A stretch of DNA of 64,000 nucleotides, from positions 75,336 to 139,335 of IMG/VR virus record IMGVR_UViG_3300044712_002452; one strand, given 5' to 3'. This DNA is from a virus (taxonomy: Duplodnaviria; Heunggongvirae; Uroviricota; Caudoviricetes). Within the stretch, counting starts at the first letter, position 1, and each line of letters begins with the position of its first letter. Below, piece after piece: positions 4,767-61,958 of this stretch. The translations under genes were made by a program, and so were the position numbers. Below the pieces are notes generated by a model. That model did no database searches, was not told the origin of the DNA, and saw only the letters and a program-made list of their open reading frames with translations.

Positions 4767-5002
4767 TCGGATAATAGTTTGTTGTTTTGCAATATTTTTT
4801 TTCTTTCCCATCCTCCATTTGGCCTTTGACATTTACTACATTTGCATTTGCCTATAACAAATCTGCCGCATCCAATAGCGTATGTATAGCCTGCATCAAT
4901 TCTTTGTTGATACCAACCTTTATCTATCCAAGATTGCAATGTTGATGGCTTTACTATTCTTGTAGTACCTGAATAATTAACTAGTTGTGTTGCTGTTATC
5001 AT
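4746..5002 (-). repeat. 21-bp direct repeats TAGTTGTGTTGCTGTTATCAT (4746-4766 and 4982-5002) flanking the small Cys-rich gene
   Basis: Exact 21/21 match. Each copy encodes MITATQL at the start of a gene. Confidence 0.7.
4763..5002 (-). CDS. small Cys-rich zinc-ribbon-like protein, paralog A
   Basis: C-terminus WIDKGWYQQRIDAGYTYAIGCGRFVIGKCKCSKCQRPNGGWERKK. About 80% identical to the protein at 41815..42045. Start is either MITATQL (5002) or MKK (5026). Confidence 0.5.
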   Translation of the reverse strand: MITATQLVNYSGTTRIVKPSTLQSWIDKGWYQQRIDAGYTYAIGCGRFVIGKCKCSKCQRPNGGWERKKILQNNKLLSE

Positions 5003-5528
5003 TTGCTTTAGGTTTGATTTTTTCATTTACTTTTTTGATTATCGCCTCACCGAGATACTTTCGATATATCTCGGCTGTGGCTTGTCGGTTGGCATCCGCA
5101 GCCGCAGCAGCCCTCGCAGCCCACGAAGCAGCACTCGCAGCACTCGCAGTAGCCCACGAAGCAGCACTCGCAGCCCTCGCAGCCCAATCAGCAGCCGCAG
5201 TAGCCATCGTAGCCCCCCACGAAGCAGCACTCGCAGCAGCCATCGCCTCTTGCAATTCACGCTCTGTCGCTTTTCCTTCACCGTATGCTATGGCTGTATC
5301 TACGGCTTTTAGACTTCGTTCATCTTTCATTAGGTGTCTAACCGTGTTCGCAGCGTGTCCTGCGGCTAAGCATCTTAGTTGCATTGGCAGTTCTAATTTA
5401 TCTGCCAACCACCCCATCCAGTATCCTCTCTCGCACTCTTGTACTGCTTGCTCTATGGTTTTTTCGCCCACCCATTTACGGGCTTCGGAACAGGCGTTTA
5501 ATTCGGTTAGTAATTGTTGTAAATTCAT
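4977..5528 (-). CDS. hypothetical protein with Ala/Ser/Trp-rich tandem repeat
   Basis: 183 aa. Residues about 95-150 are imperfect AASAASWA repeats, encoded by 33-bp tandem DNA repeats at about 5100-5250. Confidence 0.5.
   Translation of the reverse strand: MNLQQLLTELNACSEARKWVGEKTIEQAVQECERGYWMGWLADKLELPMQLRCLAAGHAANTVRHLMKDERSLKAVDTAIAYGEGKATERELQEAMAAASAASWGATMATAAADWAARAASAASWATASAASAASWAARAAAAADANRQATAEIYRKYLGEAIIKKVNEKIKPKANDNSNTTS
5100..5250 (-). repeat. imperfect 33-bp tandem repeats (about 4 units) inside CDS 4977..5528
   Basis: Unit CACGAAGCAGCACTCGCAGC(A/C)CTCGCAG(T/C)AGCC starts at about 5122, 5155, 5185 and 5219. Confidence 0.6.
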
Positions 5529-5604
5529 TGTCCTTCTTTTTTCAGGTTAATAAATCCCTCTGTTGGGGGTTCAATCGGGTCGGGGTGGATGGAGTGTAGT
5601 TCTG

Positions 5605-6873: not shown

Positions 6874-7092
6874 TTAAGCCGTTGCTGCTTTTACGGCCCA
6901 CATTGCGGCTTCTTCATAAGCTGTTTGCGCCAATGATGCTAACCGACCGTCTTTTTCCTTCAATTCTTCGCAAAGGTTGATTAGTTCAGCACTTTTTTGC
7001 TTAATCTTGTCAACAACTCCATCCGAAGAAGGATTGAAAGTTGTTCTTACTCTTTGCTCGCCGATACTGTTGGCTTTAATTTTATCGCTCAT
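6874..7092 (-). CDS. hypothetical small protein
   Basis: 72 aa ORF followed (in transcript direction) by a strong terminator hairpin at 6846-6866. Confidence 0.4.
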   Translation of the reverse strand: MSDKIKANSIGEQRVRTTFNPSSDGVVDKIKQKSAELINLCEELKEKDGRLASLAQTAYEEAAMWAVKAATA

Positions 7093-13247: not shown

Positions 13248-14330
13248 CTACAAATCTACAATAAAATGATTTATTTGTAGATTTATATTCATCGTTTTAT
13301 GAAGTTGATTCAAGAGTTCTTTACGACAAATAGAACGTTTGATTTTTTCGGTACATTCAGCCATATCTTTAATCTTAAATTGATCATTGGGTACCGGTGG
13401 TTTAAAAATGATAGGTAGTACATTCAATTCGGATCGGTATTTTTCCATGGCTTGCAGGCCGGCTGCATCCGTATCCAGTAACGTAAACACCCGATTGTTG
13501 TACCGTTGTTTTAAACCTATAATAACGGGTTCTCCCAGCAAAGTAGTTTCGCTATGTGGCGCTACGAAATCAATGCCCAGGTTTAGTTCACTCATGGCCA
13601 TTCCATCTTTGAGAGAAGCCATAATCAAACAAGACTTGTTGATTTCAGGATTGAGCTGGTCATATCCTTGCAAATAATCGAATATCTTGATGAATTTTCC
13701 TTGCGATTTACCAGGGCTGTAAATTTTGTACAATTCTCCGTTTTTGGTAAAATATCCATAAATCAATCCCGCTTGTTCAGATACCGCAAAATAGTCTTCG
13801 TATTTATTTTTGTTCACCATCACATAATAACTCAGAGGTCGAACATTAAACCGATCTAAAGTAGCGGAACTGATTTTTGGTTTGGACCAAAATTGAATAT
13901 CCAGGCTATTCCAAGAACGTACTTGATAGGCTGAGACTTCGTATTTACTTGAAACCGTGGCGTTTTCCGCTTTGGGTGTGATGGGTTTAACACAACCGCC
14001 GCTACTCAGATATTTTTGATAATCCTGGATGATGTATTGAATAGTTAACCCATAGGAAAACGAGTGACCGTATTGTTGTTCAAGTAAATAGCGCACAAGC
14101 TGAACATGATTGCCTTTTTTTCCGGTCGAAAAATCATTCCATCGCCATTTTTGAATATCCGTCGCAAAGAAAATAAACATGCTGGGTTCATTGTCACCGG
14201 CATTAAAAAGGCTTTTCATCCTGGCCGTTTTCCCTTCGATAAGGGGTTCATCTAATCCGCAATATTGTTCATAAACCCAAGTTTCCGGTACTTCATCTAT
14301 ACTTAAAATGACGTGTTGTAACTGTAGCAT
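13248..14330 (-). CDS. DNA primase, TOPRIM domain
   Basis: TOPRIM-like E...DxD: LGIDFVAPHSE...VFTLLDTDAAG. Sits next to the DnaB-like helicase. Confidence 0.5.
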   Translation of the reverse strand: MLQLQHVILSIDEVPETWVYEQYCGLDEPLIEGKTARMKSLFNAGDNEPSMFIFFATDIQKWRWNDFSTGKKGNHVQLVRYLLEQQYGHSFSYGLTIQYIIQDYQKYLSSGGCVKPITPKAENATVSSKYEVSAYQVRSWNSLDIQFWSKPKISSATLDRFNVRPLSYYVMVNKNKYEDYFAVSEQAGLIYGYFTKNGELYKIYSPGKSQGKFIKIFDYLQGYDQLNPEINKSCLIMASLKDGMAMSELNLGIDFVAPHSETTLLGEPVIIGLKQRYNNRVFTLLDTDAAGLQAMEKYRSELNVLPIIFKPPVPNDQFKIKDMAECTEKIKRSICRKELLNQLHKTMNINLQINHFIVDL

Positions 14331-30731: not shown

Positions 30732-30857
30732 TTTTGTTAAATTGAGGGTGTAAAAATAAAGGAATATGTAGATTTATTTGTCAATTTACAGATTTATTTG
30801 TAGAATAAAGACAACAAAAAGCCGCTTGGTGTAAGCGGCCTGTAAATGACAAAGGGA

Positions 30858-32004: not shown

Positions 32005-32565
32005 TTAATTTGTCGTTTTGTTTAGAAATACATGCTGGATTTGAAGATATTTTTTAAGTCTTCCATACAGTTCATCCGTTGGTTTTTGGGTAAAATACTC
32101 GTTTCCGTAGATCATTTCTTCTTTGCTTTCTTCCCAACGTTTAAGGGTTCGCATGTGTTTCCAGGTATCATCGAGTTCATGAATTTGCGGGTATTTGCCC
32201 ACCGGCTCAAAATACTGAAACAGCAAGGTTTTATGGTTACGCCCGATATCAATGATAATATTTTTTTTCGGATCCGTGGCGTGAATCAAATGCAGCCAGG
32301 CATGGTTGTATTCTACGTATCTACCTTTTTGTTGGTCTTCAAATTCACCATGAAAAATGCGGGTTTCTTTGTATCCGGATTGATTTCCGGGAAACAATAT
32401 GATTTCATCGATCAGTAAAGCTGTGAGAAAAGCCGTTTGCCGGCAGCAATTTCGTTGCCATTCGTTAAAATGAACCGGATTGTAATGGTGAAACATTTCA
32501 GTGATAGAAGGTTTCACGACATAAAAAAGCAAGGTTTTTAATTTTTCAAATTGTTCAGTAGTCAT
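32005..32565 (-). CDS. hypothetical protein
   Basis: 186 aa ORF. Confidence 0.45.
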   Translation of the reverse strand: MTTEQFEKLKTLLFYVVKPSITEMFHHYNPVHFNEWQRNCCRQTAFLTALLIDEIILFPGNQSGYKETRIFHGEFEDQQKGRYVEYNHAWLHLIHATDPKKNIIIDIGRNHKTLLFQYFEPVGKYPQIHELDDTWKHMRTLKRWEESKEEMIYGNEYFTQKPTDELYGRLKKYLQIQHVFLNKTTN

Positions 32566-32587
32566 AAAAAAGGTTTAAAATAAAAAC

Positions 32588-32612
32588 CCCGGACCAGGAA
32601 TAGTCCGGGGGA
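32588..32612 (-). terminator. terminator of tmRNA gene
   Basis: CCCCGGAC-caggaatagt-CCGGGGG, followed on the minus strand by TTTTTATTTT. Confidence 0.55.
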
Positions 32613-32634
32613 ACAACACCATTAAAAAACTCCG

Positions 32635-33143
32635 TGGAGCCGGGGGGAGTCGAACCCCCGTCTTGATAAGAATCCCCATTAGCATACTCTTACGTGCGTA
32701 GTACTGAAGTGTCCACCGCGCTACCTTCCGGCTTTGCTTTGTCTGTATTCTTCTGCACCGTAGTTAGGGCTGCTGGTTAAAGCAACCTCCACCACCAACT
32801 TTTGAGAAAAGCTGGAAAACGAATCGGAGTTAGCCTATCCGATAACCAGATTGTATGCCGAATCTCACGGCGCAACTTCGGTACTATTAGTTTGGCGTAC
32901 GCCACTCTCCCTACCAATCTGTATATAGTTTTGCGACTTTCTGTTCCACCACTGTCGCCGCGGGATCGCAAATTAAGCTGCTACAGCTTCATTCTGGAAG
33001 ATGCTTGCCAAGATGGCTTCACCTTCAGCGATGCGGGAAATCTTTGATTTGCCGTTTATAGAATTCCATGGATTGCAGGCACATGGCGCCCTTACACGAT
33101 GCTAACGTTGATCACGAATCAATCAAATTCCAAAGTCGGCCCC
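32635..33143 (-). ncRNA. ssrA: tmRNA (ssrA)
   Basis: On the minus strand the 5' end GGGGCCGACUUUGGAAUUUGAUUGAUUCGUG parallels the E. coli tmRNA 5' end. The 3' end GACGGGGGUUCGACUCCCCCCGGCUCCA has a T-arm plus acceptor, and the 7-bp acceptor pairs GGGGCCG/CGGCUCC. An internal reading frame ends ...QNEAVAA-UAA, like YALAA. A rho-independent terminator follows at 32588-32612. Length about 509 nt; 5' end is less certain. Confidence 0.6.
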
Positions 33144-33156
33144 GTTTAAATCCGGA

Positions 33157-33600
33157 TTAATTCAATCCGGATTCTAATTGAAATGCGTCCATACGACCCA
33201 ATATGAAACAAAAGCATTCCAGCGTCATTTCACGCACATGGGAAGTATGGTATTCAGCATATTGTGGATTGACTTGAACCAAGAAATATACATTGGCCAA
33301 GTCTATCATTTCTTGATACTGCGTAAGACTCATTACCATTTCTAAACAACCAATTCCATAGTACAAATACTTCAAATTGTGAGCAGATTGATACTTTGGA
33401 TTGGATTCAAATTCACGCATAATCGCCTCGATATCAGGTTTGATAATCTCGGTTGGATTGGACCCAATGGGTACAGATTTTGGATTCAGAAAATTGGATT
33501 CAAAAAAATGAACAAAAAGCGTTCGGTAAATTTCTACTTGTAAGTCTTCTTTTGAAAAATGGCATACTTCTTGCAATTTTTCTTCAATCGGTTGAGTCAT
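33157..33600 (-). CDS. hypothetical protein
   Basis: 147 aa ORF. Confidence 0.45.
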   Translation of the reverse strand: MTQPIEEKLQEVCHFSKEDLQVEIYRTLFVHFFESNFLNPKSVPIGSNPTEIIKPDIEAIMREFESNPKYQSAHNLKYLYYGIGCLEMVMSLTQYQEMIDLANVYFLVQVNPQYAEYHTSHVREMTLECFCFILGRMDAFQLESGLN

Positions 33601-34698: not shown

Positions 34699-35050
34699 GG
34701 CGTAAATTTTGAGAATTAGAGATTTTTGTATCGATCGCGGGCATTGATGTCCAGCGGTTGATCTTTGCCGGCAACAAGCGCAGCGTAAATCCAAATGAAC
34801 AACCCTGCGCATAAAATAGTACCCGTTAATAAGTATTTAAGTTCCATAGGTGCTTTTTTTTGAATTGAAAGAATCTGAAACTTTGGTTTTTTGGGCGTTT
34901 TGTGCCCGGCGGTTGCGCCAGTCTATGCCGTATATAATATACCACAGGGCGCCGAGTAATGCAATCTTCATTTGGAGAGTTTTAGTCTACGAATATAAAT
35001 AAATCTACACAATAAATATGTAGATTTATTTAATTTTTTTTTGAAACGCG

Positions 35051-39334: not shown

Positions 39335-39518
39335 TACCGAGGACAGGATTCGAACCTGTATGCCGCACTTCTAGCATTTATCATTTCTGCCGACTTTCCA
39401 ATCCTAAGTAGGTCAGAATCTAGTTGTCCCACTGACTAATGGCTTTCATCAGATTTTTAATGCTTAGGGTATGGGGTGCTGCTGAATCTCATGCGTCTAC
39501 CAATTTCGCCACCTCGGC
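39335..39518 (-). tRNA. tRNA-Leu-like gene interrupted by an about 120-nt insertion
   Basis: 5' part GCCGAGGUGGCGAAAUUGGUAGACGCAUGAGAUUCAG matches the canonical tRNA-Leu start (acceptor, D-arm, CAG in the anticodon-loop position). 3' part ACAGGUUCGAAUCCUGUCCUCGGUA is a T-arm plus the acceptor CCUCGGU, complementary to GCCGAGG. The two parts are 184 nt apart. Confidence 0.4.
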
Positions 39519-49252: not shown

Positions 49253-49274
49253 GTTTTATACTTTAGGTGGAAAC

Positions 49275-49350
49275 AAATCTACAACTTAAATCTACATTTC
49301 CAAATTTATTTGTAGAATAATTTTGCGGTTTCAATTTAGTTTGTAGATTT
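49275..49350. promoter_or_regulatory. cluster of four TTTGTAGA-family motifs (two per orientation) at the edge of the switch region
   Basis: AAATCTACAAC and AAATCTACATTT on the minus side. TTTGTAGAATAA and TTTGTAGATTT on the plus side. Confidence 0.45.
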
Positions 49351-61854: not shown

Positions 61855-61926
61855 AGCGGGGTAGAGCAGAGGTAGCTCGTTAGGCTCATAACCTAAAGGC
61901 CGGTGGTTCGATCCCATCTCCCGCTA
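61855..61926 (+). tRNA. tRNA-Met (CAT anticodon; elongator or Ile-lysidine type)
   Basis: Cloverleaf: acceptor AGCGGGG/TCCCGCT, D-arm GAGC-AGAGGTA-GCTC, anticodon arm TTAGG-CTCATAA-CCTAA, T-arm GGTGG-TTCGATC-CCATC. Confidence 0.75.
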
Positions 61927-61958
61927 CTGATTCGATAAACCAACACAACCACTTCACT

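Follow-up and report, generated by a model that had tools for sequence, protein, structure and literature searches.

A complete tmRNA gene of apparent Bacteroidota type in the genome of a crAss-like phage

We analysed a 64,000-nt stretch of viral DNA (positions 75,336 to 139,335 of IMG/VR record IMGVR_UViG_3300044712_002452, class Caudoviricetes; hereafter the window) and found, on its minus strand, a complete gene for transfer-messenger RNA (tmRNA; gene ssrA) lying within a phage genome. All of the elements for alanylation, entry into the ribosome with SmpB and EF-Tu, frame setting, tagging and termination are intact, which makes a working tmRNA the most likely interpretation. Judging from the sequence, we consider it probable that the gene encodes a functional one-piece tmRNA of the Bacteroidota type that rescues stalled ribosomes during infection. 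The finding adds a crAss-like phage, presumably of a Bacteroidota host, to the phages that encode a tmRNA.

Detection and architecture of the tmRNA gene

Searching the window against all Rfam families revealed a match to the tmRNA family RF00023 at 33143..32632 on the minus strand, which spans the full model (positions 1-374) and at 57.1 bits exceeds the gathering score of 47 (E = 9.6e-20; E = 9.9e-22 for the same match when only the local region was rescanned). ARAGORN called no tmRNA in either the native window or the local region, reporting a tRNA-Met elsewhere. When a 145-nt internal segment (tmRNA nt 279-423) was trimmed in silico to 60 nt or less, however, ARAGORN did call a tmRNA, with an unchanged 5' end, a resume position at nt 91 and the tag GKSKISRIAEGEAILASIFQNEAVAA followed by a stop, while addition of CCA or shortening of the tag alone did not restore detection. 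The native miss is therefore explained by a length cut-off at about 425-445 nt, and we rejected the silence of ARAGORN as evidence against the gene. Two independent methods, Rfam and ARAGORN on trimmed variants, concur on the boundaries, the resume codon and the tag.

An earlier prediction, made from this sequence alone, had proposed a full tmRNA-like gene at 32588-33143 with a paired acceptor, a T-arm, an internal open reading frame (ORF) ending in NEAVAA-UAA and its own terminator. All of these are present, and the interval corresponds to the gene plus its terminator; the strand, which the prediction did not give, is minus. The length of about 509 nt is real, and long compared with the 340-404 nt of cellular tmRNAs that have the same 3' end. 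The prediction had offered two explanations for this length: a misplaced 5' boundary, which proved to be correct as placed, and an internal insertion, which we did find, as the 145-nt segment together with 45 extra nucleotides in the tag frame. Of the searches that it suggested, the covariance model exceeded its gathering threshold, and ARAGORN left the native sequence uncalled but recognized the gene once the internal segment was trimmed.

Two other kinds of tmRNA were considered and ruled out. The two-piece (permuted) family RF04321 reached only 11.9 bits, short of its gathering score of 47, and the gene has the standard, unpermuted order. A miniature tmRNA consisting of the tRNA-like domain (TLD) only, of the type found in phage DS6A, is excluded by the presence of an mRNA-like domain with the pseudoknot PK1 and a tag frame.

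We number the RNA from nt 1 at window position 33143, along the minus strand (Table 1). Its third acceptor pair is a G3·U70 wobble, the identity element for alanine, and the terminal CCA is not encoded, the trailer reading CGG. Helix H2 amounts to about 23 bp, including pairs 22-26/477-481 (UUGAU/AUCAA), which were read from the sequence in the register of the Rfam alignment. Single-sequence pairing allows an H-type pseudoknot to be drawn for PK1 (S1, 53-56/64-67; S2, 58-62/74-78), which lies 12 nt upstream of the resume codon; the context of this codon is AUAAAC-GGC. From GGC the frame comprises 26 sense codons and ends in GCU GUA GCA GCU UAA, giving a C-terminal AVAA; an Ala-Ala-stop after a frame of at least eight codons from a fixed point arose in 0.27% of shuffles of the tmRNA body. 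The helical moment calculated for the tag did not stand out, and no conclusion was drawn from it. PK2 is short, at 16 nt compared with 35 in the model. In the minimum-energy fold of the whole RNA, which is more stable than those of shuffles (z-score, -2.5), the acceptor stem, T-arm and H2 all form.

Two segments account for the excess length: the tag frame, with 45 nt (15 codons) more than the model consensus, and PK4, with about 120 nt. The PK4 expansion folds into at least three hairpins (z-score of -2.6 versus shuffles), matches no Rfam family (best, wcaG at E = 0.9) and occurs only once in the window and in none of the loci fetched for comparison. A riboswitch, intron or mobile element was rejected as its identity, given the lack of an Rfam match or repeat and a length below that of group I or II introns. 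Both the long tag and the PK4 expansion are elaborations specific to the lineage.

Table 1 Features of the tmRNA gene and its immediate surroundings (window coordinates)
Feature	Position	Strand	Basis and remarks
One-piece tmRNA (ssrA), 509 nt to discriminator base	32635..33143	-	RF00023, 57.1 bits; ARAGORN after trimming
Acceptor 5' strand GGGGCCG, nt 1-7	33137..33143	-	7/7 pairs with nt 502-508 in fold
Helix H2 5' strand, nt 20-50	33094..33124	-	Pairs 31-50/447-473 (composite fold)
Pseudoknot PK1, nt 53-78	33066..33091	-	Stem enumeration; one stem also Rfam-aligned
Tag frame	32973..33053; resume GGC 33053-33051 (nt 91-93), UAA 32975-32973	-	Rfam consensus resume codon; ARAGORN on trimmed variants
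Post-tag helices aligned to H5, PK2 and PK3, nt 172-270	32874..32972	-	Rfam alignment, local folds
PK4-equivalent hairpin, closing stem nt 271-278/424-431	32713..32873	-	Rfam alignment
Expansion in PK4 hairpin, nt 279-423	32865-32721	-	145 nt versus 24 in model
Helix H2 3' strand, nt 447-481	32663..32697	-	Rfam, fold
T-arm GGGGG-UUCGACU-CCCCC, nt 485-501, 5 bp	32643..32659	-	Rfam, fold; same as many Bacteroidota and other bacterial ssrA T-arms
Acceptor 3' strand CGGCUCC plus discriminator A (A509)	32635..32642 (CGGCUCC 32642-32636)	-	Sequence, fold
Intrinsic terminator, 10-bp G+C-rich stem (32610-32587) then UUUUUAUUUU	32577..32610	-	Terminator scan; -19.0 kcal/mol
12-bp hairpin, arms AAUCCGGAUU, no U-tract	33148..33174	-	Fold energy, -14.7 kcal/mol
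Upstream 147-aa ORF, same orientation as tmRNA	33157..33600	-	ORF call
Downstream 186-aa ORF	32005..32565	-	tblastn, 38% identity to related phage L128 2851-3369

Ancestry and carrying genome

The T-arm and acceptor strand form a 28-nt block that is identical in more than 120 species genomes, many of them Bacteroidota (Flavobacteriales, Bacteroidales, Saprospiraceae and Chitinophagaceae), and which also occurs in Phycisphaerae, Clostridia and some Proteobacteria. The 5' end of the phage RNA (GGGGCCGACUUUGGAAUUUGA) and its resume context are nearest to those of Flavobacteriales and other Bacteroidota (GGGGCCGAUUUUGGAUUUGA; AUAAAU-GGC), and tags that begin with glycine are almost confined to Bacteroidota among the cellular ssrA sampled. 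Bacteroidota tags have 8-9 aa of the form G[END]xxYA[FLM]AA and follow a GGC resume codon in an AUAAAU or AUAACU context, while those of Phycisphaerae have 18-20 aa. An encoded CCA is absent from 16 of the 20 Bacteroidota ssrA with the same 3' end. The phage RNA and Bacteroidota ssrA accordingly have in common the 28-nt 3' end, the GGGGCCG acceptor with its G3·U70 pair, a similar 5' end, a GGC resume codon within AUAAAx, a tag that starts with glycine and ends in AA, and the lack of an encoded CCA. They differ in length (509 nt versus 370-404 nt), in the tag (26 aa versus 8-9 aa of the form GE[TN]SYA[FLM]AA) and in the PK4 expansion, which is a feature of the phage RNA.

Outside the conserved 3' end the resemblance disappears: in local BLAST the body of the gene showed no similarity to any of 120 cellular loci containing the 28-mer, and identity stopped within 3 nt of the 28-mer and never reached into the flanks. 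Because the body is divergent and the flanks are unlike those of cellular ssrA, the gene is either old in the phage lineage or derived from an unsampled host, and its sequence features mark it as apparently Bacteroidota-type. The glycine-first tag and the Bacteroidota resume context fit the host phylum expected of a crAss-like phage. In the course of these comparisons, ARAGORN returned implausible tags for five cellular ssrA of the Flavobacteriales type (L012, L024, L042, L045 and L113; for example, GTSKGWVRRPERNLLN..., starting near nt 234), and it probably misplaces the resume point in this subgroup.

Several searches were made for closer relatives of the phage tmRNA. None was found by blastn against 50,697 GenBank phages, by exact patterns for the tag end (18-mer) and 5' end (21-mer) in IMG/VR, or by a gapped acceptor/T-arm pattern and a 35-mer pattern covering H2 and the TLD in JGI metagenome contigs, a set that excludes the source contig. 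When Bacteroidota ssrA sequences were used to query GenBank phages as a positive control, the only matches were 30-90-nt 3' fragments and the complete tmRNAs of Streptomyces phages, and there was no full-length tmRNA of the Bacteroidota type among the deposited GenBank phages searched.

The carrying genome is about 139 kb (JGI contig Ga0451577_0000178, 139,318 bp), and because the coordinates of the window wrap around the contig ends it is circular or terminally redundant. Its minus strand encodes DNA polymerase, exonuclease, primase, and DnaB-like and superfamily 2 (SF2) helicases, and its plus strand the terminase, portal and major head protein. The large terminase subunit (TerL), portal and capsid match phrog_6681, phrog_6547 and phrog_11589, in that gene order; the major capsid protein matches Pfam PF23898 (Crass_capsid); and TerL is about 24% identical to terminases of Crassvirales, and the cultured relatives infect Flavobacterium, Cellulophaga and Azobacteroides. 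On the basis of these matches, we regard the genome as that of a crAss-like phage (Crassvirales or a related lineage). The tmRNA gene is co-oriented with its neighbors inside the replication or early gene block. We scanned 74 window ORFs and the genes of the 20 kb flanking the window, together 83 kb of the approximately 139 kb, and found no integrase, including at the locus where relatives keep theirs. The original prediction was thus right to place the gene among phage genes and not beside an integrase: crAss-type structural and replication genes surround it.

Complete tmRNAs have been described in the mycobacteriophage Bxz1 group and Bacillus phage G (PMC4131195), in huge phages (PMC7162821) and in Melnitz and pelagimyophages (PMC9004378), and our GenBank search identified them in Streptomyces phages Faust, Sham and TunaTartare. 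Like the window gene, these are full length, without sign of integration, and the same roles have been proposed for them; the window tmRNA differs from them in host phylum (Bacteroidota, presumed) and phage group (crAss-like), and a literature search found no report of tmRNA as a feature of Crassvirales or crAss-like phages. The Melnitz type is a two-piece tmRNA with a glutamine riboswitch that may regulate it (PMC9004378), unlike the one-piece window tmRNA, which has no riboswitch match. Some huge phages encode SmpB, whereas none was found in the scanned 83 kb of the window phage.

As originally predicted, tmRNA genes are uncommon in phages, with ARAGORN finding them in 402 of 18,146 phage genomes (2.3%; PMC9004378). 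ARAGORN is, however, the tmRNA finder in nearly all phage surveys and annotation pipelines (PMC7162821, PMC9004378, PMC13503771), and since it misses tmRNAs on account of their length, such published frequencies are likely to be underestimates. We found two further viral tmRNA lineages in IMG/VR that it also misses. Among the tmRNAs missed, those at L001 1659-2086 (+) and L003 4336-4771 (-), on contigs of about 97 kb, have 428-436 nt and score 68-81 bits in Rfam; L004 and L005 carry the same tmRNA as L003. The L001 and L003 genes encode an identical 29-aa tag ending in AA (DNNQVSANMATVGSLLNVNAPARTMRMAA) despite diverged pseudoknot regions, which indicates that at least one viral tmRNA lineage besides that of the window conserves long tags. 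The end of this tag resembles those of Phycisphaerae (...FAPARMAA). Like the window tmRNA, those of L001 and L003-L005 have the same acceptor stem and 28-nt 3' end, a long tag ending in AA and no encoded CCA, but their bodies and tags are unrelated to it, and no shared phage proteins were detected within the compared loci. PHROG annotation of the L003 locus did not reveal the kind of phage. Separately, a G+C-rich viral contig (L002 7790-7870, minus strand) contains an 81-nt tmRNA match (55.3 bits) that consists of the TLD only, like the DS6A element.

Proposed role and competing explanations

If the gene works as proposed, it would be transcribed together with upstream genes, with transcription stopping at the tmRNA's own terminator. 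Host RNase P would cleave at G1, the 3' trailer would be trimmed and host enzymes would add CCA, as most Bacteroidota ssrA must need. Host alanyl-tRNA synthetase would charge the RNA with alanine through G3·U70, and with host SmpB and EF-Tu it would enter ribosomes stalled on broken or stop-less mRNAs. Translation would resume at GGC, appending A-GKSKISRIAEGEAILASIFQNEAVAA (alanine plus 26 residues), and the ribosome would be freed at UAA. The C-terminal AVAA would target the product to host proteases; the same AVAA end is found on the Caulobacter ssrA tag, which is a ClpXP degron. To our knowledge, no experiment has established the function of a phage-encoded tmRNA. The benefit here could be extra ribosome rescue while phage or host RNA-targeting defenses destroy mRNAs, or while the supply of host ssrA fails, and we infer a possible counter-defense role against RNA-cleaving systems. 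For other phage tmRNAs, the proposed benefits are ribosome availability and the recycling of truncated proteins (PMC9004378, PMC7162821).

Several observations weigh against a functional tmRNA. Its Rfam score of 57 bits is under half of the 124-137 bits of Bacteroidota cellular ssrA; three of the nine pairs of the model's H5 are non-canonical; and PK2, PK3 and PK4 are each represented by only one hairpin (Rfam-aligned and recovered by folding). The gene is a singleton, with no relative in IMG/VR, JGI metagenomes, 185,579 species genomes or GenBank phages, and consequently no helix has covariation support and purifying selection cannot be shown. We found no sigma-70-like promoter upstream of the tmRNA and no Bacteroidota TAnnTTTG promoter within 357 nt upstream. 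No SmpB gene was identified among the scanned genes, and function would then rely on compatibility with host SmpB. Finally, the tmRNA is dispensable for the lineage: the nearest relatives, to which only the helicase led (identity of 45% or less) and which have the replication module in the same order, carry no tmRNA within 10 kb of the helicase (0 of 4).

The original prediction had also raised the possibility of a remnant of ssrA-targeted integration, and the evidence does not bear this out. The gene is complete, its 3' end has no second copy in the window even with three mismatches allowed, no integrase was found in the 83 kb and the flanks of the gene show no identity to cellular loci. Several of the GenBank 3' fragments, by comparison, lie at or under integrase or attR annotations (Pseudomonas phages MR13 and MR15; Moorella phage MCACPph1). 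These share the conserved T-arm/acceptor 3' end with the window tmRNA, but they are fragments of 30-90 nt at att or integrase features, whereas the window holds a full gene with no integrase found and no duplicated end.

A related explanation, that an ancestral temperate phage took up a whole host ssrA by imprecise excision and then lost its integrase, leaving the gene to drift as an inert relic, is unlikely, although it survives better than the other alternatives. A temperate intermediate has been proposed as the route by which another phage captured its ssrA (PMC9004378), and the temperate relatives lend the idea some weight. In L128, homologues of the window's 186-aa gene and of its 123-aa helix-turn-helix (HTH) gene flank a tyrosine integrase (L128 3816-4997), and in L129 the HTH-gene homologue follows an integrase (L129 7197-8333), so that the window tmRNA sits one gene from the position of the relatives' attP/integrase module. 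Just before both integrases lies a tRNA-derived, attP-like sequence (a partial tRNA at L128 3665-3724; a T-arm/acceptor fragment at L129 ~7008-7030). Given this proximity, acquisition of the tmRNA through an integration/excision intermediate is plausible; it concerns the origin of the gene and not its present function. The low Rfam score, odd tag length and 145-nt expansion could likewise be read as decay. The relatives' attP-like sequences are tRNA-derived and not ssrA-derived, however, and the window order of tmRNA, 186-aa gene and HTH gene does not fit that of a simple excision product (186-aa gene, ssrA, integrase). Moreover, no cellular ssrA resembles the body or flanks, and any capture must therefore be old, yet the helices are undecayed; the gene retains its own terminator; and the function-critical elements are intact, including the 26-codon open frame with its AA-UAA end, of a kind rare in shuffles.

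Slightly less favored again is a repurposed tmRNA, in which the 26-aa tag and the structured 145-nt expansion are non-neutral. The tag would be a phage-specific peptide that confers another fate, or the extra domain would regulate the RNA, much as the riboswitch may in the Melnitz tmRNA, and the molecule would counter RNA-targeting defenses alongside a polynucleotide kinase-phosphatase encoded elsewhere in the genome. We regard this as doubtful. Were it true, long tmRNAs invisible to ARAGORN would be a systematically undercounted class in phage genomes. The long tags of the window and of L001 and L003, if functional, offer a handle on whether phages alter the fate of rescued polypeptides.

The tmRNA could instead interfere with host trans-translation by competing for SmpB, EF-Tu and stalled ribosomes, blocking rescue or swapping the degradation tag. 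Its tag is about threefold longer than the Bacteroidota norm of 8-9 aa, no phage SmpB was found in the scanned 83 kb, and there are precedents for such a decoy: TLD-only molecules inhibit tmRNA, perhaps by titrating SmpB, and one is encoded by phage DS6A (PMC4131195), with the L002 element being similar. A decoy, however, needs neither PK1 nor a placed resume codon nor an AVAA-UAA end, all of which are kept, and the sequence gives no sign of a different fate for tagged proteins, which renders interference quite improbable.

Still less credible is an active attP, in which the 28-nt block would be the crossover core for integration into host ssrA and the integrase would lie in the approximately 56 kb of the genome outside the scanned region. 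The block is exactly identical to the 3' end of many Bacteroidota ssrA, and ssrA is a classic integration target, as the phage fragments at integrase and attR features attest. A 3' fragment would suffice for this purpose, yet the full 509-nt gene is kept; the scanned region, including the relatives' integrase locus, yielded no integrase; and the 28-mer is a T-arm/acceptor sequence conserved across several phyla, such that identity is expected with this acceptor stem.

A chance match or a misannotated protein-coding or other RNA region can be set aside: although ARAGORN is silent on the native sequence and the Rfam score is only 10 bits above threshold, the match has an E value of 1e-19 over the full model, the ARAGORN miss is reversed by trimming, and gene callers leave the interval empty, the ORFs there being only short and TTG-started.

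Flanking genes and other features of the genome

The intrinsic terminator starts 24 nt past the tmRNA 3' end. On the other side, the 12-bp hairpin covers the stop codon of the upstream ORF and ends 4 nt before G1 of the tmRNA; it is probably the structure left at the 3' end of the upstream mRNA once RNase P has cut. The upstream 147-aa ORF, which is probably co-transcribed with the tmRNA, has no homologue, with no Pfam or PHROG match and no IMG/VR relative. For the downstream 186-aa ORF, no homologue other than the L128 one was found among 5.8 billion proteins, and there was no relative in IMG/VR.

A motif, TGTAGATTTAT, occurs at 13 sites with at most one mismatch, compared with 2 expected. 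The sites are mostly intergenic, often form inverted pairs and include window 13250-13286, 30767-30777, 34999-35029 and 49273-49296. Those nearest to the tmRNA bracket its gene block (~35.0 and ~30.8 kb), with none adjoining the tmRNA itself. The motif is probably a phage promoter or operator element.

Two tRNA or tRNA-like genes were observed in the window. A tRNA-Met(CAT) (61855-61927, plus strand) separates the major capsid gene from the structural gene that follows. A tRNA-like gene with a large insertion (39335-39518, minus strand; Rfam tRNA, 32.5 bits) is called by ARAGORN in intron mode as tRNA-Leu(CAA), with a weak anticodon stem and a 104-nt insertion in the anticodon loop that is too short for a typical group I intron.

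The genome also encodes proteins with possible links to host defense and RNA repair, though neither the kinase-phosphatase nor the candidate sponge described here adjoins the tmRNA. A 72-aa ORF with an Acb2/Tad1 hairpin domain (window 6874-7092, minus strand; E = 1.8e-14) is a candidate sponge for cyclic-nucleotide immune signals. Past the window's left end on the same contig (L133 12235-17027), genes matching PRTRC_E, Prok_Ub, Prok-E2_D and ThiF (E1-like) make up a ubiquitin-like conjugation set, which is followed by the polynucleotide kinase-phosphatase (AAA_33 plus HAD_PNKP), an RNA-repair enzyme; a 2271-aa ORF occupies the opposite strand in this region. Within the window, an ORF at 4987-5550 on the plus strand, in an otherwise minus-strand gene block, contains a degenerate tandem repeat (5089-5256, plus strand; periods of 9, 12 and 21 nt) that is rich in GCA and GCC and would encode an alanine-rich repeat protein.

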